Source of the DNA: Rothia mucilaginosa
Lineage (GTDB): Bacteria; Actinomycetota; Actinomycetes; Actinomycetales; Micrococcaceae
Strand: one strand, 5' to 3'
Assembly: GCF_963538455.1 (NCBI RefSeq)
Contig: NZ_CAUTHR010000011.1
DNA length: 64,000 nucleotides
Part shown: one piece after another, positions 21,745 through 48,780 of the stretch
How positions within the stretch are numbered: the stretch's first letter is position 1
Layout: each line of letters starts with the position of its first letter
The notes under the pieces: generated by a model
The model's input: the letters and a program-made list of their open reading frames with translations, nothing else
Told to the model about the DNA's origin: nothing
The model's database searches: none
Program-made: the position numbers and the translations under genes

Positions 21745-21756
21745 TTCTTGATCGAT

Positions 21757-23926: not shown

Positions 23927-23929
23927 GCT

Positions 23930-24805: not shown

Positions 24806-24821
24806 GCTATTTCCCTTTCAA

Positions 24822-26802: not shown

Positions 26803-26909
26803 GTTATTCGGTTATACCCACGTTGTTTTCCAGGCATGGTGTACATGTCTGTCTACATCTGTTTAATCACCACACTTCCGAACCAATCACACCCGAAAGG
26901 CGGCAGAGC

Positions 26910-33179: not shown

Positions 33180-33842
33180 ATGATATCGGATATATTTTAT
33201 AGTGTTTTCTGGGGAATTATCTTAGTACTGTCCATCATCTCTGTTCCCTACATTATTATTAGGTATGAGATTAATCGACGCCAAGATAAGAAAAAAGAAG
33301 AACAGGGAATTTACATTAGGCGAGTAAATCGCTTTGAGGTATGGGCTTGTATATTTAATCCGATGTTTCCTTTTTTGGGTTATATGGCTAATAGTCAGAC
33401 TGGAAATACGGGCATTTGGCTGAATCTATTTAATATTGTTATTGTGTTTTTCAGCTATCTTTATTCCCGCTACGTTCTCACCGCTTATGTGAAGCTCTCC
33501 CCTGAAGGTATTGAGCAGCGCGTCTGGTCAGCCAACCCGACCCGCTACCCTATTAACGCGATAGACAGCATCGTGTATTACGAAACGCTGAATGTTGAAG
33601 ACCAGGATATGGTGGGCTTCTATACCCGCTCTGGCAAGCAGATTGCTGCCTTCGGTCCGACTACCCACAATAACTATCGAATCTTGGCGATTGTGCGGTT
33701 CAGGATTGAGAATGAGCGTTGGCCTGATATGAATAATTCGGATGATGTGGCGAGGGTGAATGAGTTGGACGATAGGGGTATGACTATTCTTTATTTCAGG
33801 GGCCGTGAGAAGGTTACTGGCCTTGCCGACGTTGATATGTAG
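33180..33842 (+). CDS. Probable cognate immunity protein, family A copy 4
   Basis: Starts 9 nt after the Rhs stop; 3 TM plus conserved soluble domain; AT-rich. Confidence 0.82.
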   Translation: MISDIFYSVFWGIILVLSIISVPYIIIRYEINRRQDKKKEEQGIYIRRVNRFEVWACIFNPMFPFLGYMANSQTGNTGIWLNLFNIVIVFFSYLYSRYVLTAYVKLSPEGIEQRVWSANPTRYPINAIDSIVYYETLNVEDQDMVGFYTRSGKQIAAFGPTTHNNYRILAIVRFRIENERWPDMNNSDDVARVNELDDRGMTILYFRGREKVTGLADVDM

Positions 33843-33852
33843 CACCGTATAG

Positions 33853-33899
33853 AGAAAGCCTCTGGGTTGAGAGATTACCTCTCAGCCCAGGGGCTTTCT
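33853..33899 (+). terminator. Repeated palindromic terminator (cassette 1)
   Basis: AGAAAGCCTCTGGGTTGAGAG-N-CTCTCAGCCCAGGGGCTTTCT. Confidence 0.8.
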
Positions 33900-34152
33900 G
33901 TATACCTAGGGTCAGCCGAGAAACTTGGGTGGATACGGGCCCAAGCCCACCCGCTGGTGAATGGTCGCCCAGTCTTCACCCGAGCCTTGCACCGAGTTAA
34001 CCTTCTGGTCGATTAGCCCATAGAGCATCATATTGATCTATATTTCCGCTTATCAAAGCTTTCAAGTACATAGAGTATCCTTGGGAAGAGTACGCCACCT
34101 GCAGGTGGTGCCCTTCCGGATATTCACCAACCATACGAAATGAGAACCCGTC

Positions 34153-34812
34153 ATGCGCAATTTCTTGATTATCTTCTGGGGTATCTTCGCTGCGTTCACA
34201 ACAGTTGCGACATTTTATGTCCTCATCAATTACGAGGTGCAGCGTTGGAAAGATAAGCAACGGCTACGTGAGGGTATTTATATTCGACGAGTTAATCAGG
34301 CTGAAGCTCTCATTATGATATTTACCCCCGCCTTCCCCTGTCTTTCGTTTGTAGCCCATATATACAGCCCTGATTCAATAAATACAGGGACTGAAATATT
34401 GGTCTTTTTGCTATCGGCTATGTTCATTGCCTTTTTGCGTTATGTGCATGTCGCTTATGTGAAGCTTTCTCCTGAAGGTATCGAGCAGCGTGTCTGGTCA
34501 GCTAACCCAACGGTCTACCCGATAGGTGCGATTGATAGCGTTACCTACTACAAGACCGTGGATGTTGAAGATCAGGATATGGTGGGTTTTTATACTAAGT
34601 CGGGTAAGCAGATTGCTGCTTTTGGTCCGATGACTCATAACAATTACCGGATTCTGGCGATTGTGCGGTTCAGGATTGAGAACGAGCGTTGGCCTGATAT
34701 GGATAATCCGGATGATGTGGTGCAGGTGGACGCGTTTGATAAGAGGGGTATGACAATTTCTTATTTCAGGGATCTGGAGAAGGTTACTGGTCTTGCTGAC
34801 GTGGATATGTAG
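34153..34812 (+). CDS. Putative immunity membrane protein, family A copy 5
   Basis: Same motifs; tandem duplicate. Confidence 0.82.
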   Translation: MRNFLIIFWGIFAAFTTVATFYVLINYEVQRWKDKQRLREGIYIRRVNQAEALIMIFTPAFPCLSFVAHIYSPDSINTGTEILVFLLSAMFIAFLRYVHVAYVKLSPEGIEQRVWSANPTVYPIGAIDSVTYYKTVDVEDQDMVGFYTKSGKQIAAFGPMTHNNYRILAIVRFRIENERWPDMDNPDDVVQVDAFDKRGMTISYFRDLEKVTGLADVDM

Positions 34813-34822
34813 CACCGTATAG

Positions 34823-34869
34823 AGAGAGCCCCTGGGCTGAGAGATGATCTCTCAGCCCAGGGGTTTTCT
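34823..34869 (+). terminator. Repeated palindromic terminator (cassette 2)
   Basis: CCCCTGGGCTGAGAG-N-CTCTCAGCCCAGGGG followed by TTTT. Confidence 0.8.
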
Positions 34870-35102
34870 GTGTACCAGCGGCTGCTCACCTGAGTGCCAC
34901 CCGCTGGTGAATGGCCGCCCAGTCTTTACCCGAGCCTTGCGCCTAGTTATCCTTCTGGTCGATTAGCCCATAGAGCATCATATTGCTCTGTATTTCCACT
35001 TATCAGAGCTTTCAAGCACATAGAGTATCCTTGGGGAAGGTACGTCACCTGCCGGTGGTGCGCTTCCGGATATTCACCAACCACACGAAACGAGAACCTA
35101 CC

Positions 35103-35762
35103 ATGCTTAGTCTCCCCCTGATTTTCTGGAGCACTGTTACTTTACTTACAACAGTTGCGATGTTTTATGTCCTCATCAATTATGAGGTGCAGCGTTGGAA
35201 AGATAAGCAACGGCTACGTGAGGGTATTTATATCCGACGGGTTACTCAGCTCGAAGCTTTAGTAATAATAATATTGCCCATTTTTCCAGCTCTTATGGTT
35301 ATATACCATATATACGAACCTGGTATAGATGATGTGGTGTTTGAGATACTGGCTTTATTGCTACCACTACTAGGTACTGCATACTTACGGTATGTGCATG
35401 TGGCCTACGTGAAAACCTCCGCCGACGGCATTGAGCAGCGCATCTGGTTCTCCAACCCGACCCGTTACCCTTTCACCGCGATTAACCGCGTCGTGTTCTA
35501 CAAAGCAGCAAAATATGAAGACGAAGATACGGTGGGATTCTACGCTAAGTCAGGTACTCAGATTGCGCTGTTTAGCCCGTTGCCTCATAAAAATTACCGG
35601 CTTTTGGCGATTGTGCGGTTCAGGATTGAGAACGAGCGTTGGCCTGATATGGATAATCCTGATGATATGGCTCAGGTGGACCGTTTGGATTGTGCTGGGA
35701 AGACGATGCGTTACTTTGAGAATTTGGGGAAGGTTACTGGTCTTGCCGACGTCTACATGTAG
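35103..35762 (+). CDS. Putative immunity membrane protein, family A copy 6
   Basis: Start trimmed to MLSLPL by alignment; shares FYVLINYEVQRWKDKQRLREGIYIRRV with copy 5. Confidence 0.82.
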   Translation: MLSLPLIFWSTVTLLTTVAMFYVLINYEVQRWKDKQRLREGIYIRRVTQLEALVIIILPIFPALMVIYHIYEPGIDDVVFEILALLLPLLGTAYLRYVHVAYVKTSADGIEQRIWFSNPTRYPFTAINRVVFYKAAKYEDEDTVGFYAKSGTQIALFSPLPHKNYRLLAIVRFRIENERWPDMDNPDDMAQVDRLDCAGKTMRYFENLGKVTGLADVYM

Positions 35763-35871: not shown

Positions 35872-37896
35872 TTAGCGGGTGATAATCGCGAAGTCGCTGC
35901 TGGACAGGTTCGTGAAATTACCAATCTGCGCGTTCAGGCGGCACTTAGACGTCACCGACAGCGCCGTCACCACCCGCTGATCCTCAGACACCAACACATG
36001 CCCCGAACAACCATCCGAAAAACTAATCAACTGCGCATCCGGAGAAATCGCCTGAACCAGCGTCGAAAACTCACCCGTACGCGGCAAAACCATCAACGGA
36101 TTTAACTCATCCGCACCACTGGGCCACACCGGAACCACCGTCACAGGCAAAACACTCTGATTCACCACACGAGAAGGAACCCGCAACTCAATCGACCGCA
36201 AGCGCTGAATCGGGTACGCCGTCGAACGAACCTCCCGGTCAGAAATAGCCTTCGACGTCTCAGAATCAATACGGTTCACCCACTCCTCAAAAGCACGCGA
36301 ATCCTTAAACTCAGCAGACACATTCGCCCGGACCTGCACCACACCATTAGCCGGGATACTCACCCCAGACAGATTCCACGAACACGGAACATCCACCGCA
36401 GTCACACTCGACTGATTCTTCGACACACCAGAAGACGCCTGACCGGCATCCCACGTCACCGAAGCACACGAACCACCCTCAACACCGGGAAGCACCTGCA
36501 AAATATCACCCCGAAGAGCCGACTTCTGCGAGGAAAACTCAAAAGTTAGGCGGGCACTCTTATCCCTCGGGTTATACGTACCCTCAATACGGGTACCCAA
36601 ACCACTCGGCAAAGACGCCGAACTACGGCTCGACGCAGACCACGACTCAGCCGTCTTAGACGAACCCTTACCGCCGCTCAAACCCACAAAAGCGAGCACA
36701 CCCACAAGAATCAAAGAACCCAGAATAGCGCCCCACACCAGCGGGCGGCGCAACGGCGAACGGGCAGGCTCCTCTTCCTCAACAACCTCGTCAGGCACAT
36801 ATACCGGCTGCTCCACCACAAAAGGAGCGCGGATAACCGTCTCATTCTGCGCCTGACCCAGCGACGGCATGCCCGCACCATACAGCTCCGTAACATTCTG
36901 CCCAGGCACCGAAGAAACCGCAGGCTCAGCACCATGAACCACCGTAGGCGTGTACCCCACAGCACCCGAAGACACCTCAACCCAGCGAGGAAGCACCGTA
37001 TCAGCCGTGAAACCCTCAGCTAAAAGACGCAACTTAGCGGCAGCCTCAGCCGCACCAGGACGCTGAACCGGGTTCTCCGCCAACATCCCGTGAAGAACCT
37101 CAGCCACCTCAGCCGGAATCTGCGGCGACACCTGCACCGCACCACCGCGAGCCGGAAGAGGACGCGCCGCCACCAACAACTCATGAAGAGTCACCGCGCA
37201 CGCATAAACATCCACCGCCGGAGTAGCCACACCATGCGCAGAACGCTCCGGAGCCATATACCCCGGAGTACCAGAAAACGAACGAGAAGAACCCGAACCC
37301 GCAGAGCCAGTAAAAGAAGCAATACCGAAATCAGCAACACGAACCTGCTGATCCAGAGACTCCCCCAAAACACCGCTCAGAAGAACATTCTCCGGCTTAA
37401 TATCCAGATGCATCACGCCCTGACGGTGAGCAAACTCCACCGCATTCAGAACCTGAACCATCAGACTCAACGCCAAACGAACCGGCAGCGGACCCTCAGA
37501 ATCCAGCTTCTGACGCAACGAACCGCCATGCTGAAACTCCGTCACCAGAGCCAGCACGCCACCCTCAACCACCATGTCCGTCAACGGCACAATATGAGGA
37601 TGCGACAGCGCCAACAACACCGAACGCTCACGCACAAAAGACTCAAGAACCACAGGGTTCTCCGCAAGCTCCGGACGCAAAACCTTCGCCGCATACAGAG
37701 CCCACGAGCCGCTCATCGTAGCAGCCCACACCTCACCGACCGCACCAGAACCCACCCGGCGCACCAAACGATACGAAGAGCCAAGGGGAGCGCCTGCAGC
37801 CAAGCCCCCCACAGACTGACCAGCGGCCTGCGGGGCAGGATGAGCATCACGACGCTCCGAGCCGGAGTACTGCGGCGAACCAGCAGGTACAGTCAC
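35872..37896 (-). CDS. Transmembrane Hanks-type Ser/Thr protein kinase
   Basis: GSGAVGEV, AAK, HLDIKPEN, DFG, GTPGYMAPE; one TM; ~260-aa Cys-containing extracellular domain without evident PASTA repeats. Confidence 0.93.
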   Translation of the reverse strand: MTVPAGSPQYSGSERRDAHPAPQAAGQSVGGLAAGAPLGSSYRLVRRVGSGAVGEVWAATMSGSWALYAAKVLRPELAENPVVLESFVRERSVLLALSHPHIVPLTDMVVEGGVLALVTEFQHGGSLRQKLDSEGPLPVRLALSLMVQVLNAVEFAHRQGVMHLDIKPENVLLSGVLGESLDQQVRVADFGIASFTGSAGSGSSRSFSGTPGYMAPERSAHGVATPAVDVYACAVTLHELLVAARPLPARGGAVQVSPQIPAEVAEVLHGMLAENPVQRPGAAEAAAKLRLLAEGFTADTVLPRWVEVSSGAVGYTPTVVHGAEPAVSSVPGQNVTELYGAGMPSLGQAQNETVIRAPFVVEQPVYVPDEVVEEEEPARSPLRRPLVWGAILGSLILVGVLAFVGLSGGKGSSKTAESWSASSRSSASLPSGLGTRIEGTYNPRDKSARLTFEFSSQKSALRGDILQVLPGVEGGSCASVTWDAGQASSGVSKNQSSVTAVDVPCSWNLSGVSIPANGVVQVRANVSAEFKDSRAFEEWVNRIDSETSKAISDREVRSTAYPIQRLRSIELRVPSRVVNQSVLPVTVVPVWPSGADELNPLMVLPRTGEFSTLVQAISPDAQLISFSDGCSGHVLVSEDQRVVTALSVTSKCRLNAQIGNFTNLSSSDFAIITR

Positions 37897-38013
37897 GGGC
37901 TAACTCCTTAACATCAACTTCACAACAAGCAGGGCGACTCCCCAGACGGGGCGACCCCCACAGCAAAATAGCCGGTAAAGTTACACGATACCTCACCACA
38001 CGCCAGACAAGCC

Positions 38014-41000
38014 CTACAGCCCGCCACGGTGCTGAGAATCCTCAGGGCTCATCAGCTGCACCAGAACCGGCGACCCGGCAAGGAACGCATAACCACGACC
38101 AACACTCAGCTGAACCGGGGCGCGCCTCGGAATAGAACCGAACATGTCCATATCCGTATCAACATTCGGCTGAACCACAGCACCAGTACGGAACTTACGA
38201 ATAGCCTTCGTCCAATGGCTATACAAAGGACGCAAATCAGTCGGCTTACCCGTAGCAATAATGTGAACGTCCGGGAAGTCACCCTTCACAATGGCATCAA
38301 AAACGTTCATCGGGTCATCCACACGGTCACCATCATCAATCAGCAACAGCACCGGGCCCGCGGCATCCTGCAAAGCCGCCTGCACCTGAGCAGAAGCATT
38401 CTTGCTCTCAAACACCCGGTCAAAAACGCCCTCCGGCGCATTCACCAGACCGGAACGCTGATCGAAGACAGCCCAAACCTCCGGAACCTCCGCGGCATCC
38501 ATGCGTGCGTTCTCTGCCGCGGTGGCATCACCAGACGCCAACGCGGCAGACACCGCTTGCTCCGCCGCAGCCCTTGCCCGAGAAACCAGACGAGCAAACG
38601 CAACCAGCAGAGAAGACTTACCCGAACGCGGATTACCCGCAACCATGGCGTGCTCACCCTCATACAGTTCGAAAGCACAAGCCTCCAACGTAGCCTCCGC
38701 AATACCCACAGGGATACGCCACAGGCTCGGAGAAAACTCAGCAGCAGGCATGCTCTCCCACGAAACCCACGTCGGCAGCTGACCAATCACATCACGCTTA
38801 GCAGGAGCCTGCGGGAATCGCTCACGAATCATAGAGACCGCCTCCTCCACGCCAACAGCGGGAGTAGCCACCTGCATCTGACGCAGACGCTTCGGATCAA
38901 CACAACGCCCAGGAACCGCAGCCGGAACATTTGTACCGCGAATACCGTGCGAGGAATAATCGTGGATATCGCTCAGCTGGAAGAACCACGTCTGCAACGA
39001 AGCATCAAGAATCTGCGAGGGAATATTCTTCGCGCGACTCGTCGACACCACGCAGTGAATACCAACAGCAGGACCATCCGCATACACGCGGTAGAAATTC
39101 GCCAACAAATCCATGCTCACAGCGTCAGAGAACTCATCACGCAGCGTCGCAAAACCATCCAAAACAATGAAAAGAGGCTTACGGCGTGACGCGTCAGCAC
39201 GGCGAGCATCAAGCTCCGACTTCACAAAACGCAAGAAGCGAGCCTGACGTTCCCTAGCGCCCTGACCGGTACCCACAGCAGAAACAACATGCGGCAAAGA
39301 GCCCAACGGCAACAAGCCATCAGCGCCCATATCCACCAGAACAATATCGATGTCCTCCGGCGAATAATGCTGAGCCAAACCCAGCACCACAGACTGAATC
39401 GTCGTGGTGGTACCACTACCGGCAACACCCACCAACAGCAGGTTGCTCATCTCAATATTCCAGCCCATAGGCACCTGACGCTGCAGCTCAGGCTCATCAC
39501 CCAGAGTGCACATCAGAACACCGTCCTGGACGCCCCCCACAGTGGGAAGATCCGGGTCCGGGAAGCCACGAACACCAAAATCAGCCAAATCAACATACGA
39601 ACCCAACGGCTTAGGCCACACCTTACGAGGAGCAACCGCACCACGAGCCGCATGAGCCGCCACAACAGCATCAATCAGCAGATCCAGGTCATTCGCATCG
39701 CTCGACGACACCTTCGGGCGCGCACGCTCCGAACGAGGAATACCGATACTATCGGTCGCACGAACCTCCAGAGAAGTCACCACCTCAGTGCCACTCTGAC
39801 CCGTCACCAGGGCAGTCTGCACCGGCGAAATATCATTCTGGCCCAGCTTCACATAGGCGCGACCCATCTGCGAACGCGAAATCTCCGAAGCATCCGGAAC
39901 ACCAATCACGTTCGAAGAATCCTCACGGCTCTGCACACGCAACGCCACACGCAAGTTCGTATTCGCCAGAATGTCATCATTCACCACGCCGGCAGGACGC
40001 TGAGTCGCCAAAATCATGTGCACACCCAGGGTACGACCCACCGCACCAATGCTCACCAGCGACGACAGGACATCAGGGAAGTCCTTCGCCAGCATCGCAA
40101 ACTCGTCAATCACCAGCAGTAAGCGAGGCATCGGCTCCGGCGGGTTCGTCGCCAAATAATCCTTAATGTTGTCCACGCCCTCGCCAGCAGCCGCGAACAG
40201 GCGCTGACGACGGTCCATCTCCGCCTCCAACGACTCAATAGCGCGGTGAGCCAACTGAGCATCCAAGTTGCTCAAAGTACCAATCGTATGCGGCAGACGC
40301 TCACACGTCTTAAACGCCGCACCACCCTTAAAGTCAACCAGAATAAAGTTCAAACGGCTCGGATCATGGTGCGCAGCCAAACCCGCCACCAACGAACGCA
40401 AAAACTCACTCTTACCCGAACCAGTGGTACCACCCACCAGACCGTGAGGGCCGTCCTTCACCAAGTCCAGGGCGAACGCGCCAGAGTCGCCCACACCAAT
40501 CTCTGTGCTGAAACCATTAGCCTGCGACCAAAACGCCTCAATATCCTCAGCGCCCGGAGGGGTCGGCAAACCAACCAGCTCAGGTAGCTTCACCAGCTGC
40601 GGCAAACCGCCACCCAACAGCAGACGCTCAGGGTCCTCATGATGCGCCAAAGTACGCGCCACATGAAGAGCATCCTCAGCGCTCACACCGGCGAGCACAC
40701 CGTCAGTGACCGTGTAACGGCGGCGAGGCTCCGAATAGGTGATGGAAGCCTCCTCACCAATCTCCACGACCGAAGTACACGACGCAGGAAGACGGTCAAC
40801 AGAAGAAGCCAGCACAATACCGGCAACACGGCGAGCACCCGCAGCGGCAGTCTTATTCGCCATCAGACGCACTTCATCGCCATACGCCAAAAGGTCGCGT
40901 GCCGGCGACTCACGGCCCTCAGTGAGGGTATCCGAATCAACGACCACGCACAGGCCGCGGGTCGGAAGAGACTCAATGTCGTTGTATAGAGAGCGCAGCA

Positions 41001-42402
41001 TCTGATCCGACTGCTCCTTACCAGAAGCAAACCAACGCATCTGCTGGTTCTGCGCCATATGCATGTGCGGAAGCCACGACGTCCACACCCAGTCCTGCGA
41101 GCGCGCCGAATCAGCACAGACCGCAATCGTCATATCAGCAGGACCCGTGTGGGTCGCCGCCTGCAGCACCAGGCTACGCGCCAAGGCAAGAGACTGCTCA
41201 CGCGGACCCACAATACCGATAGCGCCGCCCTCACGCAGGTCAGCAACCAGCGGGGCATCCCACAGGGTATTGTGCTCAAGAATATGCTGAACCTCAGGCT
41301 CAGGATTGCTCGGCTTCGTCAGTTCAGGAGCCCAATGAATATGCCCAGTACCCACATGGAAAGTCAACAGGTCAGGGCTGGTGCTCCGGCGACGCCACAG
41401 CGTCATTGCAGGAAGAAGCGCCCGCAGCTGAACGGCATCCGGTGCCGGGGCAAGGTCGTGAAGACGCTCAATTTCCTCACGGTTACTCAGAGCGATACGT
41501 TCCTTAAACTTCTCCATTTCCTGCTCAAAACGCACACGCTCCTTCACCTTATCCTTAGCATGACGACGTTTCTGCTCCACCCACATGCCAATACTCAGAA
41601 TGGGGCTGAGCATCGCGAAAAGGGCGTAACGAATCTCCTGCATAATCGCGACCATCGCCGCCGCCATAATAATCGGACCCACCGCCATCGCAAGATTGAA
41701 CTTAGGCGGATCAGAAACATTCTTGCGGGTAGGCGCCTCCACCTTATCCGGGGCGCTCAACGCACCCTGACGCGGCGGACGGTTAAACGGTGCGGTACCC
41801 GACGCACTCACGTTCGGGGCGCTACCGGGGCGCGGCGCAGCCTTCTCCTGAGGCGCAGGCTGCAGAGTCAGCACACAATCACCAACATGGATAGTGGTGC
41901 TCTCAGAAACAGTCAGACCCTCCTCAGGGATTTTCTGACCGTCCACAAAACTACCGTTCGTAGAACCCGGATCAGTGATACGCACCTTCTGAGTATTCGT
42001 TGACTCATCATGAACCACCTGCAGGTGCAGATGCTCCCACGACGCGCTCGCCGTGGGCAGCACAATGTCGGCGTACGGGGAACGACCCGCCACCAGAGGA
42101 CGTGAAGAAGGGATAGGGTGCGGCAGGGTAACCGTCGAACCGCCGCTCAAACAGACGCTCCAGCCCTGCACCAGGGAAGGGTAGGAGAGCGGTGCCCTAG
42201 AGATGCGCATACCTTCCATCGGCTTGACCTCCGCCAGGGTGGAGGATGCCGTCACCGGGCGGTTATCGCAATACAGCGGCTCGTCTGCGGGCAGGGAGGG
42301 GCCACCGGTCGCCTGGATGAGATCAGCGATGGTCGTCTCAGGCTGCCAGGAGTCTAGTTCATAGCTCCCGTTATGCTCTTCAAGATCAAGGAAAAAGCGC
42401 AT
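38014..42402 (-). CDS. EssC/EccC-type FtsK/SpoIIIE secretion ATPase with N-terminal ubiquitin-like and FHA domains
   Basis: FHA (GRS..SWEH..GSTNG), TM hairpin, LWRRR..GTG, Walker A motifs GTTGSGKS, GVAGSGTT and GNPRSGKS, VDFKGG, IDEFA, ATQRP. Confidence 0.92.
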   Translation of the reverse strand: MRFFLDLEEHNGSYELDSWQPETTIADLIQATGGPSLPADEPLYCDNRPVTASSTLAEVKPMEGMRISRAPLSYPSLVQGWSVCLSGGSTVTLPHPIPSSRPLVAGRSPYADIVLPTASASWEHLHLQVVHDESTNTQKVRITDPGSTNGSFVDGQKIPEEGLTVSESTTIHVGDCVLTLQPAPQEKAAPRPGSAPNVSASGTAPFNRPPRQGALSAPDKVEAPTRKNVSDPPKFNLAMAVGPIIMAAAMVAIMQEIRYALFAMLSPILSIGMWVEQKRRHAKDKVKERVRFEQEMEKFKERIALSNREEIERLHDLAPAPDAVQLRALLPAMTLWRRRSTSPDLLTFHVGTGHIHWAPELTKPSNPEPEVQHILEHNTLWDAPLVADLREGGAIGIVGPREQSLALARSLVLQAATHTGPADMTIAVCADSARSQDWVWTSWLPHMHMAQNQQMRWFASGKEQSDQMLRSLYNDIESLPTRGLCVVVDSDTLTEGRESPARDLLAYGDEVRLMANKTAAAGARRVAGIVLASSVDRLPASCTSVVEIGEEASITYSEPRRRYTVTDGVLAGVSAEDALHVARTLAHHEDPERLLLGGGLPQLVKLPELVGLPTPPGAEDIEAFWSQANGFSTEIGVGDSGAFALDLVKDGPHGLVGGTTGSGKSEFLRSLVAGLAAHHDPSRLNFILVDFKGGAAFKTCERLPHTIGTLSNLDAQLAHRAIESLEAEMDRRQRLFAAAGEGVDNIKDYLATNPPEPMPRLLLVIDEFAMLAKDFPDVLSSLVSIGAVGRTLGVHMILATQRPAGVVNDDILANTNLRVALRVQSREDSSNVIGVPDASEISRSQMGRAYVKLGQNDISPVQTALVTGQSGTEVVTSLEVRATDSIGIPRSERARPKVSSSDANDLDLLIDAVVAAHAARGAVAPRKVWPKPLGSYVDLADFGVRGFPDPDLPTVGGVQDGVLMCTLGDEPELQRQVPMGWNIEMSNLLLVGVAGSGTTTTIQSVVLGLAQHYSPEDIDIVLVDMGADGLLPLGSLPHVVSAVGTGQGARERQARFLRFVKSELDARRADASRRKPLFIVLDGFATLRDEFSDAVSMDLLANFYRVYADGPAVGIHCVVSTSRAKNIPSQILDASLQTWFFQLSDIHDYSSHGIRGTNVPAAVPGRCVDPKRLRQMQVATPAVGVEEAVSMIRERFPQAPAKRDVIGQLPTWVSWESMPAAEFSPSLWRIPVGIAEATLEACAFELYEGEHAMVAGNPRSGKSSLLVAFARLVSRARAAAEQAVSAALASGDATAAENARMDAAEVPEVWAVFDQRSGLVNAPEGVFDRVFESKNASAQVQAALQDAAGPVLLLIDDGDRVDDPMNVFDAIVKGDFPDVHIIATGKPTDLRPLYSHWTKAIRKFRTGAVVQPNVDTDMDMFGSIPRRAPVQLSVGRGYAFLAGSPVLVQLMSPEDSQHRGGL

Positions 42403-42521
42403 AAGGTGTTCTCCAAAATAGATAAATCGTGAGCCCTGCTGGTGAACGGACTAGGAGGGAAACCCCGAAAACCGGGGTGTGATGGGCTGGTTCTGTACGG
42501 ATGAGGCTTTACTCAGAAAAG

Positions 42522-43946
42522 CTAGTCGCGAGATTCTGAGGTGAACGTGCGAAGCATCCACACCGGCGGATTCACCGCATCCGTTGAAGAAGACCCACCC
42601 TGAATCATCGAAGCTTCTGCGGTCGGGTAAAGAAGACCCACCTGCCCGCCAGCGGCGTAAGAAGACGAAAAATCCAACGGATACGCGACCGTAGAATCTT
42701 TAGAGTCCAACCGGAGAGTTCCTAGCACCCGTCGAACTGCCTCAGGAGTGTATTCACGAACTTGGCTTGTGGCATACGCAAAAGCCAAGAGCGCGTTATG
42801 GGAGGGCGCGTCCGCCCACGCTGCCGATTTCGAGAACGCCTGTTCGCCGGACAAATCCTTAAGCGAAGAATCATTCTTCATACGCTCAACCGTTGACACA
42901 AACGCCGAAGAAGCACGACCGGCATCATCAGCATTCAACGCCGCAGCGCGTGCCTGCACACGCCCCACAACGCGAATATTGTCAGTCAGGGAACCACCGT
43001 TCTCCAGAAGAAGACGAATAAAAGGCTCCGTCAAAGCTTCCTCACCCGCAATCACCGGAGAAGTAATACCCGCCCTCTGAAGAGAACGAAGCACCTTCGC
43101 CTGTGTCGACGCCGAACCCGTCAAAACCAGAACAGGAGAAGAGCCCGAAGACTTATCACCCAGAAGGCGCGTCAGCTCCTTGAGAGTGTCCTTCATGCTG
43201 TCTTCATCAGCAGAAACCTGAACCCGATTCGTATAGGGAAGGTCCGGCGCAGAGCCCTCGCCCGCATCCAACAGGATGGTGCGCACACCATCAAGCTGCT
43301 GCGAAGAACCCGCGCTAGACACACCGGCAAGCGAACGAATAGCAGCCGTATAGGCCTGCTTCTCCTGCTCAGGGTCCAGGGCAAAACTCCACACCCCATC
43401 GCCAGCATCTACCCGGTCATACGCCTCAATCACCGCAACATTGCGTTCCTTAGCAGCAGCCGTAGCACCCCGAAGATGCTCACCCCGAGAGGCAAGCACA
43501 ATACCCAAAGCGCCCTCAGACGAGAGCTTCTCTACCGCCTCACGGGCACCCTGCTCCGTTCCCTTATCGTTCGCATAAAGAACCTTCACAGAAGAATTAC
43601 CCAGAGCCAGACGGTACTGGGCAACACGAGCACCCTGAGCATTCAGACGCCACGCAGACCCCTCAGCATCATCACCAAAAGTAGCGACAACACCAATAAC
43701 AGGCTCACGACCAGACGCAGGAAGAGAAATAGCCTGCTGAACCGTCACCGCAGACGCAGGGTTCGTACCCGTACCAAGCGGCAAAGGCTGAGGAGTCACA
43801 GCGCGCACGCCATACCAGATCCCCACCACCGCAAGACTAAACAGCACACACAGACTGACACACCACACCACGGTGCGCTGAGTGAGCCGCCTGCCCTCGC
43901 GGCGGTGAGGACCTGAATCAGAACCCAAATGAGGGGAAAACCCCAC
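42522..43946 (-). CDS. Membrane-anchored type 1 periplasmic-binding-fold (LivJ/LivK-like) protein
   Basis: N-terminal TM, IGVV..GARVA..LYANDKGT..AREAVEKL..GIV pattern; begins 2 nt after upstream stop; no permease nearby. Confidence 0.7.
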   Translation of the reverse strand: MGFSPHLGSDSGPHRREGRRLTQRTVVWCVSLCVLFSLAVVGIWYGVRAVTPQPLPLGTGTNPASAVTVQQAISLPASGREPVIGVVATFGDDAEGSAWRLNAQGARVAQYRLALGNSSVKVLYANDKGTEQGAREAVEKLSSEGALGIVLASRGEHLRGATAAAKERNVAVIEAYDRVDAGDGVWSFALDPEQEKQAYTAAIRSLAGVSSAGSSQQLDGVRTILLDAGEGSAPDLPYTNRVQVSADEDSMKDTLKELTRLLGDKSSGSSPVLVLTGSASTQAKVLRSLQRAGITSPVIAGEEALTEPFIRLLLENGGSLTDNIRVVGRVQARAAALNADDAGRASSAFVSTVERMKNDSSLKDLSGEQAFSKSAAWADAPSHNALLAFAYATSQVREYTPEAVRRVLGTLRLDSKDSTVAYPLDFSSSYAAGGQVGLLYPTAEASMIQGGSSSTDAVNPPVWMLRTFTSESRD

Positions 43947-43948
43947 GG

Positions 43949-46900
43949 CTAATCACCAATCTGGAAGGTGTACACCGTCTTCACCTCTGCACTGCCAGCA
44001 TTCGACAGATGGAAGGTCGGCAACGAACGCAGACGCTGCAGCGACGCCTTGAACTGCGCCTGACGCTTCTGCAGAGCAGCAATATCCTCAGAACGGAGGT
44101 TCGTGTAACCCTGAGCATTCTGCATCGCCAAAGCAAGCTGGTAATCAGCCGCACCAGCCTTTGCGCTATTGCTCTTGAGTGCGCCCAAGAGGCCAGCACC
44201 CTCAGCGTTGCTATCGCCCAAATCAAGCATGAGCTTCGACAGGTCGTTATTCAGCTGAACGGACGCACCAGCCAAATCTCGGGTAGCGTTCTCAGCGCGG
44301 GTGCTCAGAGCAACCAGAGAACGCTCAGTCACCGAATCCAGAGACTGGCGCAGACCCTCAATACGATCATTCATATCCTTGTGCTGAACCTCGATGGATT
44401 CACCAGCCACCTGAACCACAGTATTCGCGGTATCAGTAATGCCAGCAATCGAAGCAGAGAACGCCGCCTTAGCAGCCGAAGCGCTAGAAGAACCATCGCT
44501 CGAAACCTTACGAATCTCCTCGCTAATCATGCTCGTCAGGCTCTCACGAGTCTCATCGGCAGACTCCTTGAACGCTTCCTTAATAGCGGTGGAGAGGTCA
44601 GACTGCATGTTCGTCATATCCTCAAGGTTCTTACCCAAAGCATTGACGGCATCCGAAGCCGAATGGATACGATCGCGCAGAGAAACCTTAGCCTGATCAG
44701 TAGGTTCTTCCCTCTTCTCCGCATCCTGGTTCTGCGCGTTTGCGGCATCATTCAGGGTCTTTTCAACCTCGCCCAGGGCACCATCTACCGCGTTCACAGC
44801 ATCGTTAAGGTCCTTAGCGTCGCGAGCCAGACCCTCCTTGGGGTCATCCATCGAAGTAGCGGCAAGAACCTCATCCCACGCAGCTACCGCGGCAGCAATA
44901 CGCTGCTCCATCGGAGTACGTGCGGCAGGAGTGTTCGACGTGTAGGTACGCTCGTTCGCGTTCTCCACCGTAATGACGCGAGTATTACCTTCCGTAGCAG
45001 TAGGCTCGGCGGAAGGCGCCTCAGAAGAGGGAGCGGCGGAAGGCGCCTCAACCTTCTTCGACGGCTCCTCAGAAGGAGCCACAGAAGCAGACTCAGACGG
45101 CGCAGGGCTAGGAGCCTCAGACGGCGCAGGGCTAGGAGCCTCAGACGGCGCCTCAGAAGACGGGGCAGCAGACGGCGAAGCCGCGGCACCACAAGAAGAA
45201 GCCGTCAAGTATCCACGCAGATGCTCAACCTGCTCAGCAGACAGAGAACCGCCACGCTCAGTAGACAGAGCACAAAGCTGCTCCGCCAGTTCCTTATTCT
45301 GAGCGCTCATAGAACCAGAACCGTCCACCAGCTCCGCACGAGCAGAAGCCGCACGAGAATGAACGTTCTTGATGCTCTCAATTAGACGACTCGACGTTTC
45401 CTTCATCTGATTCACACTCTGACGAGCTGCACTAACCTTCTCACTCAAAGAACGCACAGCATCACCATCAAGAGAAGACGGGTCCTTCTCCACCTGTTCA
45501 ACAAGCTCATCCATCTGACGCTTCAACGCCGAATAGTTGTTGTTTGCACCCTTCAAATATTCCGGCTGCAGGTGATCCACAATCTTCTCACCGGTAGCAA
45601 CCAGTGCAATCAAAGAACTCTGCACGGTCACCGACGCACCAAACAGGGCACAGGTCACCGAACCGTTAGAAGAGCAAGTCTCAGCGGTCGGGTGCTCCGG
45701 GCCAACAATCTCACGAATCGAAGCTGTAAGATCCTGCTGACAATCCGAGCTTGCCTCCGCATATGCATTCAGAACAGCAGACAGCTGAACCAAATTACCG
45801 TACACACTGCGGCTATTCGCACTCTCCTCACGATGCACAACACAACGACCGCCGCTATGCGAAACAGACACATTGGGGCGCGCCGTCGTATCACCCAACA
45901 TCGAGTGAAGAGTAGCAACAGTACGCTCCAACTGAGAAATCAGCTGAGAATTGTTAGTACGCGAAGCCTCAGAAAGATCCTTCTGCAGGCTCTCAATATT
46001 CGCCTGCAGACCCTGCATGGTCTTCGTCAACGATTCATTCTGAGTCTTCAGATGCTCGGCAGTGTCCTTACCCAAAGTCGCGGACGTATCATCCAGGCTC
46101 TGACGTACCTGAGCAACCTGCGAACTAGCGCTAGTCAACGTCGTATTAACCTCGTTGACCGTATCAATAGTGCGCTGCAGGAGCGCCACCTGAGACGCAT
46201 CCTGAGAGGTGAAACCGTTAGTAATGATTCCCGCACCAGACAAATCAGAAGCAAAACCAGGCTGCACCGAAATGTTGAAGGTAGGCGCACTAAAATCCTT
46301 CGCCTTGACCTTCAACACAAAAGAAGAGGAACTACCAGTCACCGGAGGCGCCGAAATAGCACCCCACTGAACAACAGCCTTACCTTCATCATTGGTGCTC
46401 ACCACACCATTCGTCGACGAATCAGCCGCATCGGGGGTCGTAATAACCTGAGTAGGAGAACCAGAAAGAACAGTAGAAGCAGCAATAGAGAACGGAGTAC
46501 CAACCGGTGCAGGGCTAGTACGGCTAGTACCGGATGCATCATAGGTGACGTCCTCAGTCTTCACCGTCAGGTTCTCAACCGTAACCTTAATCGTGATTTC
46601 GCCACTGTAACCGTTCAAATCATTCAGGTTAGTGCCGCTACCGCGCTCAGTAGAATACTGCAGGCTCACACGCACAGGAAGGTCATTGACGACATCCTTC
46701 GGCTTGAACTGCACATTGCTCGAGGAGCTCGTACGATCCTTGTCATTAACGTAAATGTTGGTCGACTCAATCGACGAAACCTCGCCGTCACGGCCCATCT
46801 GAACATTCACGTTCTGCAGAACATTAGTAGCGTTCTCCACCTGGCGGGGGCTCTGAGAAGTAACAGTGCCCTTATCGGAAGGGGTGCTGTTATTGTTCGT

Positions 46901-46996
46901 GCCCGTGGAGCATGACGAGAAAATGAGTGCCGTCGTGACACCCAAAATCAAAGGGAAGCGGAGTAGACGCTGACGCGCTGTGGTGTGGTTGGTCAT
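43949..46996 (-). CDS. Large coiled-coil lipoprotein, YhgE/Pip/EsaA-like ectodomain
   Basis: Lipobox-like IFSSC, LPVRVSLQY..LNGYSGEITIKVTVEN beta domain, long heptad helices, central SEAPSPAP repeats, terminal strand VKTVYTFQIG. Confidence 0.7.
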   Translation of the reverse strand: MTNHTTARQRLLRFPLILGVTTALIFSSCSTGTNNNSTPSDKGTVTSQSPRQVENATNVLQNVNVQMGRDGEVSSIESTNIYVNDKDRTSSSSNVQFKPKDVVNDLPVRVSLQYSTERGSGTNLNDLNGYSGEITIKVTVENLTVKTEDVTYDASGTSRTSPAPVGTPFSIAASTVLSGSPTQVITTPDAADSSTNGVVSTNDEGKAVVQWGAISAPPVTGSSSSFVLKVKAKDFSAPTFNISVQPGFASDLSGAGIITNGFTSQDASQVALLQRTIDTVNEVNTTLTSASSQVAQVRQSLDDTSATLGKDTAEHLKTQNESLTKTMQGLQANIESLQKDLSEASRTNNSQLISQLERTVATLHSMLGDTTARPNVSVSHSGGRCVVHREESANSRSVYGNLVQLSAVLNAYAEASSDCQQDLTASIREIVGPEHPTAETCSSNGSVTCALFGASVTVQSSLIALVATGEKIVDHLQPEYLKGANNNYSALKRQMDELVEQVEKDPSSLDGDAVRSLSEKVSAARQSVNQMKETSSRLIESIKNVHSRAASARAELVDGSGSMSAQNKELAEQLCALSTERGGSLSAEQVEHLRGYLTASSCGAAASPSAAPSSEAPSEAPSPAPSEAPSPAPSESASVAPSEEPSKKVEAPSAAPSSEAPSAEPTATEGNTRVITVENANERTYTSNTPAARTPMEQRIAAAVAAWDEVLAATSMDDPKEGLARDAKDLNDAVNAVDGALGEVEKTLNDAANAQNQDAEKREEPTDQAKVSLRDRIHSASDAVNALGKNLEDMTNMQSDLSTAIKEAFKESADETRESLTSMISEEIRKVSSDGSSSASAAKAAFSASIAGITDTANTVVQVAGESIEVQHKDMNDRIEGLRQSLDSVTERSLVALSTRAENATRDLAGASVQLNNDLSKLMLDLGDSNAEGAGLLGALKSNSAKAGAADYQLALAMQNAQGYTNLRSEDIAALQKRQAQFKASLQRLRSLPTFHLSNAGSAEVKTVYTFQIGD

Positions 46997-47319: not shown

Positions 47320-48222
47320 TTAGCTGGCCGCAGGTTCAGCCTCCGGCTCCTCCTCATCTTCCTTCTCGGGGATAGCAACACCCACGGTCACGTACCTCTT
47401 CGCCAGCAAGTACGAGGCGATAACCGGCACCACGTACACCAGCGACAATCCACTACCGGACTGCACAACATCAGCGGCAAGACGGGCCGCCGCCAAACAT
47501 CCACCCAAACCCACTAGGGCTACGCAGAAGCCGCGCAACACGCCATACCCGGCAGTGCCCTCCTCAAAGGTCGACGCCCACAGCTTGAATAGGGTGCGGC
47601 GCACAAAAATTAGGAAAACCGGCACCAGGCACAGCACCACCGAAACACCCACAGGCTCATAACCGGCAGTAGCGAACGAAACCACCGGAATCAGCAGGCA
47701 GAAGAGCACCATCAGGGCGCTCACACCCAGCACCACCGCGCGCACATACCGGTTGATGCGCTCCATACGGCGCAGGTTGGGGATCTCATCGCTCGGCTGC
47801 GCGGCATTGTAGAAGAACAGCAGCAGAATCAGCGCGGACGCCGCCACATACCAGGGCACAAAATTGATGCCGTCCACCTGCGGGGTGAAAGCAACCGGCG
47901 GGACACCCGCCAGGGAGAGAGCAGCGAGCAGAACAATCGCGGCAACGCAGAGCGTGCCCACTGTCAGCAGAAAGTAATGGTACGCGCCGCCGTTCTTGGT
48001 GTTTTTCACGCAGTGCTCATGAGTGCCGTCAATCGTCACGACCGAAAACAGCATTATCGAGATGGATAGGATGCTCCACGCGTATTCACCCGTCACGACG
48101 GGGACGAGCATGAGAAGAATGGATATAGAGAAAAGAATCCACAGGAATATTCGCTGCAGGGTCGGTGAGGACGCGAGGGCCTCTCCAAAAAAGCCGATGA
48201 TAAAGTCACCGATAATGTCCAT
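47320..48222 (-). CDS. Multi-TM hypothetical protein, family B (paralogue of 23930-24805)
   Basis: AAAGGA RBS; shared motifs with 23930. Confidence 0.8.
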   Translation of the reverse strand: MDIIGDFIIGFFGEALASSPTLQRIFLWILFSISILLMLVPVVTGEYAWSILSISIMLFSVVTIDGTHEHCVKNTKNGGAYHYFLLTVGTLCVAAIVLLAALSLAGVPPVAFTPQVDGINFVPWYVAASALILLLFFYNAAQPSDEIPNLRRMERINRYVRAVVLGVSALMVLFCLLIPVVSFATAGYEPVGVSVVLCLVPVFLIFVRRTLFKLWASTFEEGTAGYGVLRGFCVALVGLGGCLAAARLAADVVQSGSGLSLVYVVPVIASYLLAKRYVTVGVAIPEKEDEEEPEAEPAAS

Positions 48223-48249
48223 GGTGGATTCCTTTCTGCGGAGGTGGGG

Positions 48250-48780
48250 TTACTCTTTGATCTCTTCAAAGCGGAGGACGCTGAAGTCGAATTCATCGTT
48301 TCGGGAATAGAAGGACTTGTATGCCCTGTATTTCTTGCCCGTCTCAAAGTTCTGGAGGTATTTGCGGATGGGTATACCATCAGGGGATTTGCTCGATGTG
48401 ATGATTCCGCACTCTTCCGTTTCGAATTCGCCGGAGATTGAGTAGGGGTCCTCATGCTCAATGATTTCGACGGAGGTGACAGTGCAGATAGCGGATTCAT
48501 TGCCCGGGTTGTAGTTGGTCATGAAATGTAAGGACGCAAGGAACCCTAGCATGACTGCCATGATTATGATGACGTCGCGTGCGCCCCATGTATCTTTTGC
48601 TATTTTGCGAAGATACTCTTTGAAATCGACTTTATTCTTCTTTTTCTTGACGTATCTCTTTTTGTTGGTCTTCTTCGTAGCCCCAGTTTCGGCAATGTAA
48701 TTTGCCTCTGGGTAACTCTTTTTCTTTGAGATGTTCCTTTTCTTTGAAGCGTTCTTTTTCCTCGGGGAGTTCTTCTTCAT
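48250..48780 (-). CDS. Single-TM protein, family C, with Lys-rich N-terminus
   Basis: CTVT..GEFETEECG..GKKY..RFEEIKE shared with 21352. Confidence 0.75.
   Translation of the reverse strand: MKKNSPRKKNASKKRNISKKKSYPEANYIAETGATKKTNKKRYVKKKKNKVDFKEYLRKIAKDTWGARDVIIIMAVMLGFLASLHFMTNYNPGNESAICTVTSVEIIEHEDPYSISGEFETEECGIITSSKSPDGIPIRKYLQNFETGKKYRAYKSFYSRNDEFDFSVLRFEEIKE

Follow-up and report, generated by a model that had tools for sequence, protein, structure and literature searches.

A conserved type VII secretion-type gene module with a transmembrane kinase and a predicted phosphothreonine-reading ATPase in Rothia mucilaginosa and related actinobacteria

Does Rothia mucilaginosa carry a type VII secretion system (T7SS) that is controlled by phosphorylation, and, if so, which of its parts are new? 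The question was raised by an earlier note on a stretch of 64,000 nt from this actinobacterium (NCBI RefSeq assembly GCF_963538455.1, contig NZ_CAUTHR010000011.1; called the window below), in which the gene for a transmembrane (TM) kinase lies next to the gene for an EssC-type ATPase with an FHA domain. The analysis described here showed that the locus is a non-canonical cluster of the T7SS type, and that it is real and well conserved. The best explanation of its gene content, which we consider somewhat likely to be correct, is a membrane machine of four proteins that exports a WXG100 protein and an Rhs toxin and that is gated by phosphorylation, with the kinase as the writer and the FHA domain of the ATPase as the reader.

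The four genes are adjacent and are all located on the minus strand. In the direction of transcription they encode a probable lipoprotein of 1015 aa (43949-46996), a bitopic protein of 474 aa with an ectodomain that weakly resembles LivJ/HAAT-like periplasmic binding proteins (PBPs; 42522-43946, called the PBP-like protein), the EssC-type ATPase of 1462 aa with matches to FtsK_SpoIIIE and FHA (38014-42402), and a bitopic Hanks-type Ser/Thr kinase of 674 aa with a match to Pkinase (35872-37896). All four open reading frames (ORFs) were recovered with the coordinates and the orientation that the earlier note had given. They converge on a plus-strand cluster, which consists of the gene for a small protein of the WXG100 family (94 aa with a WDG motif, 26445-26729), the gene for an Rhs/YD-repeat polymorphic toxin of up to 2115 aa (26823-33170), and three paralogous ORFs of 220, 219, and 259 aa (33180-35762). 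The arrangement is far beyond chance: dozens of other genomes contain this gene set with identities of 25-50%. Parts of the window stretch were also present in 13 sequencing runs, mostly runs from people, one of which was recorded as RNA.

The co-occurrence of the four genes was quantified starting from two different genes. The PBP-like protein was used as a query for a sample of relatives with 41 genomes and for a family set of 301 genomes from 38 genera, and 20 kb were fetched around 14 of the matches. The protein was present in 5 of the 41 genomes and in 26 of the 301 genomes, the latter representing 9 of the 38 genera. A k-mer homologue search with the same protein retrieved only five near-identical proteins. 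Synteny of the genes for the lipoprotein, the PBP-like protein, and EssC was seen in each of the 14 fetched loci. A gene for a kinase with the same ectodomain was found within the locus in 12 cases and on another contig in the remaining two genomes, and all 14 genomes that had been sampled via the PBP-like gene carried all four genes. In addition, WXG100 and Rhs genes were found beside the module in most of the 14 loci. For the reverse search, the kinase ectodomain was used with one genome per species, which yielded 108 encoding stretches, 80 loci of which were kept. Within 10 kb of the ectodomain, EssC was encoded in 72 of the 80 loci, the PBP-like protein in 68, and the lipoprotein in 67, and several of the incomplete loci stop at the edge of a contig. 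In summary, the proposal that the four genes co-occur with one another and with WXG100 and Rhs genes held in both directions, and the four genes are a conserved module.

The distribution of the module extends over several families. According to the records, the carriers include Rothia, Arthrobacter, Paenarthrobacter, Pseudarthrobacter, Glutamicibacter, Paeniglutamicibacter, Enteractinococcus, and Yaniella, and further carriers are Curtobacterium, Rathayibacter, Frigoribacterium, Microbacterium, Klugiella, Frondihabitans, Xylanimonas, and one metagenome-assembled genome (MAG) of Aeromicrobium. Spot checks showed that members of Micrococcaceae, Microbacteriaceae, and Promicromonosporaceae are among the hosts and that the MAG belongs to Nocardioidaceae. 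The full set is also present in two genomes of another family, with identities of 39% for EssC, about 30% for the kinase, 26-30% for the lipoprotein, and 25% for the PBP-like protein, and one genome of a third family, which has a low GC content, holds the full set as well. When the ORFs of 42 loci were clustered, only four families were found in at least 30 loci, and these were EssC (37), the lipoprotein (36), the kinase (34), and the PBP-like protein (30). Rhs was counted in 11 and WXG100 in 8 of the 42 loci; both counts are too low, because short flanks and the greedy choice of ORFs miss these genes. No separate ubiquitin-like protein was conserved among the ORF families of the 42 loci.

The ATPase was analyzed in detail because it is the component that links the locus to T7SSs. 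A Pfam scan of the 1462-aa protein revealed FtsK_SpoIIIE (2.2e-47) and FHA (8.9e-09), and the sequence contains two FtsK_SpoIIIE stretches and a third P-loop. The models EccCa (7.3e-115) and EccCb (1.4e-74) matched below their curated equivalog cut-offs. The order of the parts is an N-terminal region of about 75 aa, one FHA domain (about residues 100-180), a linker with the motif T203-APFNRPPR, two TM helices (about 235-275), and the ATPase domains of the FtsK type. Within the FHA domain, the residues G106, R107, S119-A120-S121-W122, H124, and S147-T148-N149-G150 were invariant in 27 orthologues. The Gly-Arg, Ser-x-x-His, and Asn-Gly positions are what we take, from the work on Rad53 and GarA, to be the hallmark of FHA domains that bind phosphothreonine (pThr). 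In agreement with this, the FHA profile matched pThr-binding FHA domains of known structure, i.e., 3gqs (1.4e-10), Rv1747 (4e-09), GarA (8e-08), and Rad53 FHA1 (8.5e-06), and also Rv0020c. Judged by its sequence, the FHA domain of EssC is thus of the canonical pThr-binding type, and the description of the protein as an FHA-FtsK ATPase was correct. T203, which belongs to the TAPFNRPPR motif of the linker that leads from the FHA domain to the membrane, was invariant in the 27 sequences.

The first about 75 residues of EssC are also conserved. The search for their origin gave weak leads only, namely Atlas clusters with FHA and YukD at 0.77-0.78, within a range of Atlas scores (0.77-0.82) that is too low to count as evidence, and a match to SLBB with E 0.088, and there was no match to YukD; the region may be a fused domain of the ubiquitin-like or beta-grasp type. 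A complex predicted for the cytoplasmic part of the kinase and the N-terminus of EssC had a score of 0.00, a value that, without controls, counts neither for nor against binding. ATPases of this general kind are not restricted to the module. Within the order, EccC-like ATPases with an FHA domain are widespread, and the FHA-containing N-terminus was matched in 197 of 401 genomes. Related EssC proteins with 31-37% identity occur in other classes, and a kinase gene adjoins 3 of 6 fetched loci, again without envelope proteins of the window type (this tally includes one genome that is flagged as unpublished). An 1834-aa FHA-FtsK-type ATPase is encoded beside a tellurite-type stress cluster with TerD, vWA-TerF, StiP, and PRTase (L183, G344:C1:3321000-3340999), which is one of many contexts for FHA-bearing EccC-like ATPases in the order.

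Next, the presence of canonical T7SS components was assessed by searching the whole genome (2.24 Mb in 46 contigs, rated 100% complete) with hidden Markov models (HMMs). EccB and EccD did not have a single match at E <= 0.01, and the models detected their targets in the control genome of Corynebacterium. The EssB model (TIGR03926) was also without any match and detected EssB in the control genomes, and YukD (PF08817) was not matched at E <= 1. EccE had no match either, but the model was equally silent in every control genome. Mycosin-like S8 proteases were present, and the best of them reached 234.6 bits compared to a cut-off of 278.75. Its gene is located on contig C2 beside a Ppx/GppA gene and away from T7SS genes; the mycosin-like proteases sit on other contigs with unrelated neighbours. 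The N-terminal EsaA model had one match in the genome, an unrelated 872-aa ORF on contig C1 with 45 bits compared to a cut-off of 122. These results bear out the statement that EccB, EccD, and EssB are not recognisable, and, for MycP, only subtilases below the cut-off were encoded on other contigs. For the families tested, no canonical ecc genes were found elsewhere that might supply the channel. With an EssC-type ATPase and an adjacent WXG100 gene and without a recognisable EccB, EccD, or EssB, the locus is, as had been proposed, a non-canonical variant of the T7SS type in an actinobacterium.

Two other loci of the genome came up in these searches. A second large FtsK-like ATPase of 1514 aa is encoded on contig C7 (C7:65600-70144; locus L016:7601-12145). 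It matched the EssC/EccC models across a single ATPase domain only, its gene is preceded by three ORFs without family matches (700, 431, and 133 aa), and genes for a TadA-like ATPase and for Ssd/CpaE-like proteins are nearby. The possibility that it represents a hidden canonical system was rejected on the grounds of the one-domain match, the TadA-/CpaE-like neighbours, and the lack of ecc genes. The protein may be linked to a Tad pilus or may be another secretion or DNA-transfer ATPase. The only WXG100 match of the genome above the Pfam cut-off (62 bits) is located on contig C1 (C1:165749-166315; L018:5750-6316). It is the C-terminal half of a 188-aa ORF, which adjoins the gene for a HAMP-HisKA histidine kinase and is far from the T7SS cluster.

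The second component that is central for the proposed control is the kinase. The Pfam scan yielded a Pkinase match with E 3e-44. The protein consists of a cytoplasmic kinase domain (about residues 40-290), a juxtamembrane linker, one TM helix (about 385-407), and an ectodomain, which in the model (pLDDT 93) is composed of two beta-sandwich domains and contains four invariant cysteines. Records of R. mucilaginosa contain the ectodomain with 99-100% identity. The glycine loop, K71, E90, D165, K167, N170, D189-F190-G191, and the GTPxYMxPE segment were invariant in 12 full-length orthologues and again in 27. A profile of the cytoplasmic part made from 27 sequences had PknA (4.8e-56) and PknB (3e-54) as its nearest solved relatives. 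In the juxtamembrane linker, T318, T353, and R356 were invariant in the 27 sequences, and a basic residue was present at position +3 of T318 and of T353 in most of them. The ectodomain was then used to search 1.84 billion cluster representatives (clusters at 50% identity), which led to 169 matches at E <= 0.001. Among the 150 of the 169 matches listed, 83 are proteins of at least 580 aa, and all 83 carry a kinase domain. In these 83 full-length representatives among the matches listed, the catalytic loop H[R/L/Q]D..K..N was kept in 83 of 83 cases, and the following motif was DFG in 63 and DFS in 13 (either of the two in 76 of 83). The conservation of the catalytic loop in all 83 indicates a family of kinases that are predicted to be active, and not of pseudokinases. 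From its sequence, the window kinase is predicted to be catalytically competent, in line with the earlier observation that it has all catalytic motifs. Together with T203 of EssC, T318 and T353 of the kinase could be the phospho-acceptors.

The fold of the kinase ectodomain was less informative. The best Foldseek match was pb6 of phage T5 (E 2e-04, TM 0.27), and the VIA search had its best match with an Ig-like domain of LigA (Z 7.6) and otherwise retrieved only generic Ig-, CBM-, and mu-homology-like matches. A sequence profile of the ectodomain found nothing in the PDB at E <= 1. An EssB-like ectodomain was considered and dropped, as both Foldseek and VIA retrieved generic beta-sandwich matches only and no EssB chain. 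A homology between the kinase ectodomain and the beta domain of the lipoprotein, both of which are mu-homology-like, was also rejected (hhalign probability 0.1).

It had been suggested that the kinase stands in for EssB, the pseudokinase of the firmicute T7SSb. One part of this suggestion is well founded, i.e., the topology of a cytoplasmic kinase fold, one TM helix, and an ectodomain, which is the topology of EssB and also of TscD (Garrett, Higginson and Palmer 2024, microLife, PMC11217815; all statements on this paper refer to its main text). However, the topology is all that the kinase shares with EssB, the kinase part appears to be active and is PknA/PknB-like, and no EssB chain came up in the fold searches with the ectodomain. 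The same topology is also the starting point for another explanation, according to which the kinase would mainly be a structural, EssB-like scaffold, its catalysis would be incidental or serve another pathway, and the FHA domain would bind it independently of phosphorylation, as EssC and EssB do in T7SSb. The tight co-occurrence of the kinase with EssC and the lack of a conserved phosphatase nearby would be in agreement with a scaffold. Yet nothing would oblige a pure scaffold to keep its catalytic residues, and EssB has lost them according to a passage in PMC12599244. Here, K71, D165, N170, the DFG motif, and the glycine loop do not vary among the orthologues, and 83 of 83 representatives retain the catalytic loop. 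In addition, the FHA domain of EssC has kept the pThr-type residues that EssC of T7SSb is without (PMC11217815), and no match to the EssB model exists in the genome. A mere scaffold is therefore quite unlikely in our opinion, and a function of the kinase as the writer of a phosphorylation signal is preferred.

The two envelope proteins are the parts of the module that are most difficult to relate to known proteins. The N-terminal hydrophobic stretch of the lipoprotein ends with ...FSSC, and its cysteine, C29, is conserved in at least 90% of 37 orthologues. Six further cysteines (C385, C419, C441, C449, C575, and C602) were invariant in the alignment of 37 sequences, and the conserved pairs of cysteines fit an extracytoplasmic location. 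No TM helix was found after the signal sequence. The AlphaFold model has a mean pLDDT of 70, with about 90 for a beta domain that is formed by residues 58-246 and the last strand (1004-1013). Elsewhere in the model, long alpha-helical hairpins account for about 700 residues, and an insert rich in Pro, Ser, and Ala (about 605-690) is disordered. The beta domain resembled mu-homology domains with Z 10-11 and a root-mean-square deviation of 3.3-3.6 A over about 168 residues, when VIA was applied to the Foldseek top 1000. The protein had been labeled EsaA/YhgE-like, and this label was not sustained: The ORF had no match to the EsaA HMM and nothing convincing in family scans. The lists from Foldseek and VIA contained mu-homology domains and helical bundles and no EsaA chain, but a model of 1015 residues with medium confidence is a poor probe for an EsaA-like fold. 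At most, "EsaA-like" can be kept as a loose analogy that refers to a long, predicted extracytoplasmic helical stalk.

The PBP-like protein has one N-terminal hydrophobic helix, which is followed by an extracytoplasmic domain. Its start overlaps the stop of the lipoprotein gene by 4 nt in 12 of 14 relatives (under a longest-ORF rule), and the overlap suggests that the translation of the two genes is coupled. The match to Peripla_BP_1 was weak and below the cut-off (E 0.0018). A 15-sequence profile retrieved from the PDB an amino-acid-binding protein of the HAAT family (4nqr, E 4e-05, query residues 79-290) and a Leu/Ile/Val-binding protein (8wch, 0.023), and a fragment of an orthologue (locus L215) matched Peripla_BP_6 with 1.3e-04. 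A membrane-anchored protein with a LivJ fold had been predicted at this position. The anchor would be the single N-terminal hydrophobic helix, and the fold, to which the weak sequence matches point, is plausible.

Does this protein sense a ligand? A true extracellular sensor that activates the kinase across the membrane would be in agreement with the weak but repeated signal for the PBP fold, with the membrane anchor and the translational coupling to the lipoprotein gene, and with the joint conservation of the PBP-like protein and the kinase. On the other hand, the gene is split in one genome and was not found in another one (G1124 and G1227, see below), and a large ectodomain on a single membrane helix would suit a structural component just as well; EccB is an example of this topology. 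A role as a sensor is thus possible but doubtful, and we lean towards the view that the PBP-like domain is structural, and a co-receptor at best.

The putative cargo is encoded on the opposite strand. Orthologues of the WXG100 protein with 52-58% identity are encoded beside the module in relatives, and the protein is presumed to be a core substrate or a co-factor. The neighbouring Rhs protein had matches to RHS_repeat (1e-89), DUF6531, and the Rhs core. Its true start is likely to be the Met at residue 30, and its sequence indicates a helical N-terminus without a signal peptide. The C-terminal 340 aa had no Pfam match at E <= 1. Rhs homologues follow the WXG100 gene in most relatives for which the flank was long enough, and the toxin is probably fired at rival bacteria. 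The queries with the three downstream ORFs all matched the same ORFs in other Rothia loci, which shows that they are paralogues; they had no family matches, and they are candidates for immunity proteins by their position only. Of the WXG100-Rhs-immunity cluster that had been described, the WXG100 and Rhs genes are real, and the immunity function is putative.

A turn with the residues F-E-G is present between predicted helices of the N-terminal region of Rhs (window 26910-27200). This turn brings to mind the signal of AesB, for which an FxG variant of WxG was reported (Wang et al. 2026, preprint, PMC13622651). At window 21352-26283, directly upstream of the WXG100 gene, the minus strand carries a series of ORFs (130-291 aa, several of them hydrophobic; GC 49-55%). 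These ORFs were without family matches and may be orphan immunity or accessory genes of a toxin island.

Taken together, the following mechanism is proposed as the best explanation. The four proteins would form a membrane complex, which, together with the adjacent WXG100 protein, would export the neighbouring Rhs toxin, and the three downstream paralogues would protect the producer. The kinase would be placed in the complex at the site that is occupied by the pseudokinase EssB in T7SSb, and it would phosphorylate conserved threonines, either T318 and T353 in its own linker or T203 in the linker of EssC. Binding of the pThr by the FHA domain of EssC would gate the assembly of the machine or its ATPase activity, which would parallel PpkA and Fha as well as the published proposal for T7SSc/d/e. 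The three extracytoplasmic domains would be the envelope-facing part of the machine.

Several results weigh against this mechanism. We infer secretion, phosphorylation, and binding in this system from sequence comparisons. The EssC model (TIGR03928) matched the ATPase with 4.6e-152 across positions 6-1287 of 1296, but with 508 bits it stayed below the curated cut-off of 778. The WXG100 ORF matched TIGR03930 (1.6e-06, 28 bits) and PF06013 (23.8 bits compared to a cut-off of 27.3), in both cases below the cut-off. The assignment of the PBP fold is weak and depends on an E value of 4e-05 at best. The window kinase has HLD where its relatives among the 12 orthologues have HRD, and non-RD kinases are often under different regulation. 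Among the ORF families of the 42 loci, no phosphatase was conserved in the neighbourhood, and no polytopic membrane protein was conserved, which leaves the channel itself unexplained.

Two genomes also deviate from the complete module. G1227 (99% complete; locus L214 = G1227:C41:1-17000) has an intact EssC of the same clade with 44-46% identity over the full length, and its gene is found beside WXG100 and Rhs genes. No homologue of the kinase ectodomain or of the PBP-like protein was detectable anywhere in this genome, and the locus L214 has no homologue of the lipoprotein. The ATPase can thus persist without the kinase or the PBP-like protein, and the locus is either a remnant or a minimal form. 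In G1124, a relative with a low GC content (45%) and the full module, two ORFs of 151 and 259 aa take the place of an uninterrupted PBP-like gene (locus L215, G1124:C16, about 12511-13753); either the gene is frameshifted or a pseudogene, or the assembly is wrong at this site.

A further point against the proposed mechanism is the position of the kinase gene, which has the same orientation as essC in some genomes and is convergent to it in others. This switching and the location on a different contig in two genomes show that the kinase is not always co-transcribed with essC. A gene that is often convergent to essC or on another contig, and thus outside its operon, might encode a regulator of transcription, and the kinase, perhaps together with the PBP-like protein, might control the expression of the locus or of a wider regulon in response to cues from the envelope or from competitors, instead of acting post-translationally. 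There are precedents for this, as IreK and its control of the enterococcal T7SS are discussed by Garrett et al. (PMC11217815) and as Esr1 operates in Schaalia (PMC13622651). However, the 42 loci share no conserved transcription factor or DNA-binding output protein. Their single conserved FHA domain is part of the ATPase itself, an arrangement that suggests a direct target, and the ectodomain family of the kinase occurs only in this kinase architecture and almost always beside this EssC. We regard transcriptional control as decidedly improbable and prefer the phospho-gating of EssC.

How much of this is new? Garrett et al. (PMC11217815) defined T7SSc to T7SSj and reported that kinases, phosphatases, and FHA proteins are frequent in the T7SSc-j clusters. 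In their description, TscD combines an EssB-like topology with a conserved active site, and TsdC and TseC have FHA domains that keep the pThr consensus, in contrast to those of T7SSb EssC. They proposed that phosphorylation of threonine, as in type VI secretion systems (T6SSs), controls the assembly or the activity of such T7SSs. With this proposal for T7SSc/d/e, the central idea of an active kinase and a pThr-binding FHA domain is already in print. The concept of a kinase-controlled T7SS is thus not new, while the component set appears to be undescribed in main-text descriptions. Neither Rothia, Arthrobacter, "Micrococc-", lipoproteins, nor periplasmic binding occurs in the main text of that paper, and no paper with this set of components was among those listed by searches of the type VII secretion literature.

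The closest published system is T7SSd, which is composed of TsdA, TsdC, and TsdD together with TsdH, a small protein with a single TM helix, and TsdI, a protein of about 1650 aa with a Sec signal, Ig-like domains, and a C-terminal TM helix (PMC11217815). The similarities to the window system are manifold. Both have a WXG100 protein, an EssC-like ATPase with a pThr-consensus FHA domain, a TM Ser/Thr kinase with an active site and an EssB-like topology, and two further envelope proteins, both lack a separate ubiquitin-like gene, both have Rhs proteins as candidate substrates, and both occur in Actinomycetota. In contrast, TsdH and the Ig-like TsdI (about 1650-1800 aa, C-terminal TM helix) differ from the 474-aa PBP-like protein and the stalk lipoprotein of about 1000 aa, the C-terminal region of TsdD is described as helical and not as two beta-sandwiches, and the hosts of T7SSd are Olsenella and Bifidobacterium and not Micrococcaceae, Microbacteriaceae, and their relatives. 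The window system thus has the pThr-type FHA-ATPase and the TM kinase that define TsdC and TsdD, and it does not have TsdH, TsdI, or a helical TsdD.

This comparison could be extended to genomes because two loci from another family of the same order fit the published description of T7SSd (L216 and L217, on G514:C7 and G1203:C12). Their gene order is a 577-aa kinase with a helical C-terminus, a 147-aa protein with a single TM helix, a 1797-aa Ig-like protein that has a TM helix near each terminus, and the ATPase, which is followed by a separate FHA protein of 171 aa, a 93-aa protein, and a 515-aa protein with the Pfam domain T7SS_signal. The ATPase is 28% identical to the window EssC. In L216 and L217, tblastn detected no match at E <= 1e-3 to the kinase ectodomain or to either of the two envelope proteins, and, consequently, the window system shares the logic of T7SSd but differs from it in the accessory parts. 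The Ig-like protein of 1797 aa and the kinase of 577 aa recall pairs of EsrA and EsrE from Bifidobacterium in the supplement of Wang et al. (PMC13622651).

Another kinase pathway, which belongs to the threat-sensing Esr-Esx systems of Actinomycetales, is described in the preprint of Wang et al. (PMC13622651). In Schaalia, the Esr kinase pathway was shown experimentally to phosphorylate an FHA protein at threonine and to control Esx, and FHA-EccC fusions were also reported. The Esr loci encode EsrA, a Big_9 filament protein with a beta-propeller, as well as MoxR, vWA/DUF58, transglutaminase, and PP2C proteins. The common feature with the window system is a Ser/Thr kinase with an FHA output that is linked to Esx in oral and other Actinomycetales. 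The parts of Esr (Big_9, MoxR, DUF58, transglutaminase, and PP2C) were absent from the Pfam scans of the larger ORFs of the window and from the widely shared families of the 42 loci, to which this search was confined. The name "Rothia" is absent from the main text of that work and from the part of its supplements that was searched.

Could the cluster then be an ordinary member of T7SSd or of the Esr-Esx systems, with nothing new about it? The shared T7SSd logic (WXG100, pThr-consensus FHA-ATPase, TM kinase, two envelope proteins, no ubiquitin-like gene) would be in agreement with such an assignment, and loci from Micrococcales may be filed in the supplementary lists of Garrett et al. However, in the loci that do fit T7SSd, the EssC identity is 28%, and neither of the two envelope proteins nor the kinase ectodomain has a detectable homologue. 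The hallmark genes of Esr did not turn up in the scanned ORFs of the window or in the widely shared families, and the main text of Garrett et al. (PMC11217815) is silent on Rothia, Arthrobacter, and "Micrococc-" and on lipoproteins and periplasmic binding. We consider this assignment very improbable. By main-text descriptions, the set of PBP-like protein, stalk lipoprotein, beta-sandwich kinase, and FHA-EssC appears to be undescribed.

The relation to the other secretion systems is more distant. T7SSb and the window system have in common an FHA-bearing EssC (firmicute EssC was the best full-length HMM), a single WXG100 protein, a bitopic protein with a kinase fold, a large protein with an extracytoplasmic helical stalk, and cargo of toxin and immunity proteins for the competition between bacteria. 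In contrast to T7SSb, EssC of the window has one FHA domain instead of two and keeps the pThr-type residues, its kinase is predicted to be catalytically intact, is PknA/PknB-like, and does not match the EssB HMM, and its stalk protein is a lipoprotein that neither contains TM helices nor matches EsaA. Furthermore, T7SSb has YukD, which was not matched in the Rothia genome, and the PBP-like component is present in the window and not in T7SSb. The ESX systems (T7SSa) share with the window an ATPase of the EccC type, a WXG100 substrate, and the phylum; they differ in EccB and EccD, which were not matched in the Rothia genome, and in the mycosins, which were found only below the cut-off, and EccC of T7SSa is without an FHA domain (PMC11217815). 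PpkA-PppA-Fha of T6SSs (TagE-Fha in Agrobacterium) resembles the window system in combining a membrane-bound Hanks-type kinase that has a periplasmic domain with an FHA domain on the apparatus, and in the proposed post-translational switch of a machine for antibacterial secretion. However, the T6SS is an unrelated machine, and in the window system the ATPase itself carries the FHA domain, while the locus has no conserved cognate phosphatase. The comparison with T6SSs is an analogy, which was also drawn by Garrett et al. (PMC11217815).

A more far-reaching interpretation would be that the module represents an unnamed T7SS subtype, which lies outside the published subtypes a-j by their main-text description and is largely confined to Actinomycetales. 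It would have an active kinase at the position of EssB, a PBP-fold protein and a stalk lipoprotein in place of EccB/EccD or EsaA, and possibly a ubiquitin-like fusion. An extracellular cue, perceived by the ectodomains, would lead to the phosphorylation of threonine, which would be read by the FHA domain of the ATPase and would result in the firing of Rhs. The module would also reflect the ancestral catalytic state, from which the pseudokinase EssB and the phospho-blind FHA domains would have degenerated. We regard this interpretation, taken as a whole, as unlikely.

Other regions of the window seem to be less closely connected with the module. Two ORFs co-oriented with it are located upstream (47320-48780, minus strand) and encode a polytopic membrane protein of 300 aa and a basic protein of 176 aa. 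They had no family matches, and tblastn detected them in 4 and 3 of the 80 loci, respectively, mostly with 29-37% identity and only in some Rothia loci. Both are probably not core parts. In the region 15459-21255, which has a GC content of 64-66%, both strands contain very long ORFs, first of 823 and 778 aa and further on of 1018 and 837 aa, and these ORFs had no Pfam match.

What does the module mean for the biology of its hosts? The T7SSs of actinobacteria other than mycobacteria are poorly understood, and how any T7SS is switched on post-translationally is an open question. The lack of a conserved polytopic membrane protein sharpens the question of what forms the channel. The carriers span soil- and plant-associated genera, such as Arthrobacter and Curtobacterium, and a common human oral commensal, and Arthrobacter and Curtobacterium are easier to manipulate genetically than Rothia. 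The module is naturally replicated, as it is represented by 108 encoding stretches and by 169 ectodomain clusters at 50% identity. It is a compact test system with four conserved proteins and a WXG100 protein, in which the kinase, the FHA reader, and the ATPase are genetically linked and in which the candidate phospho-sites are invariant. Therefore, the idea of a phospho-switch, which Garrett et al. developed from genomics, is directly testable in this module.

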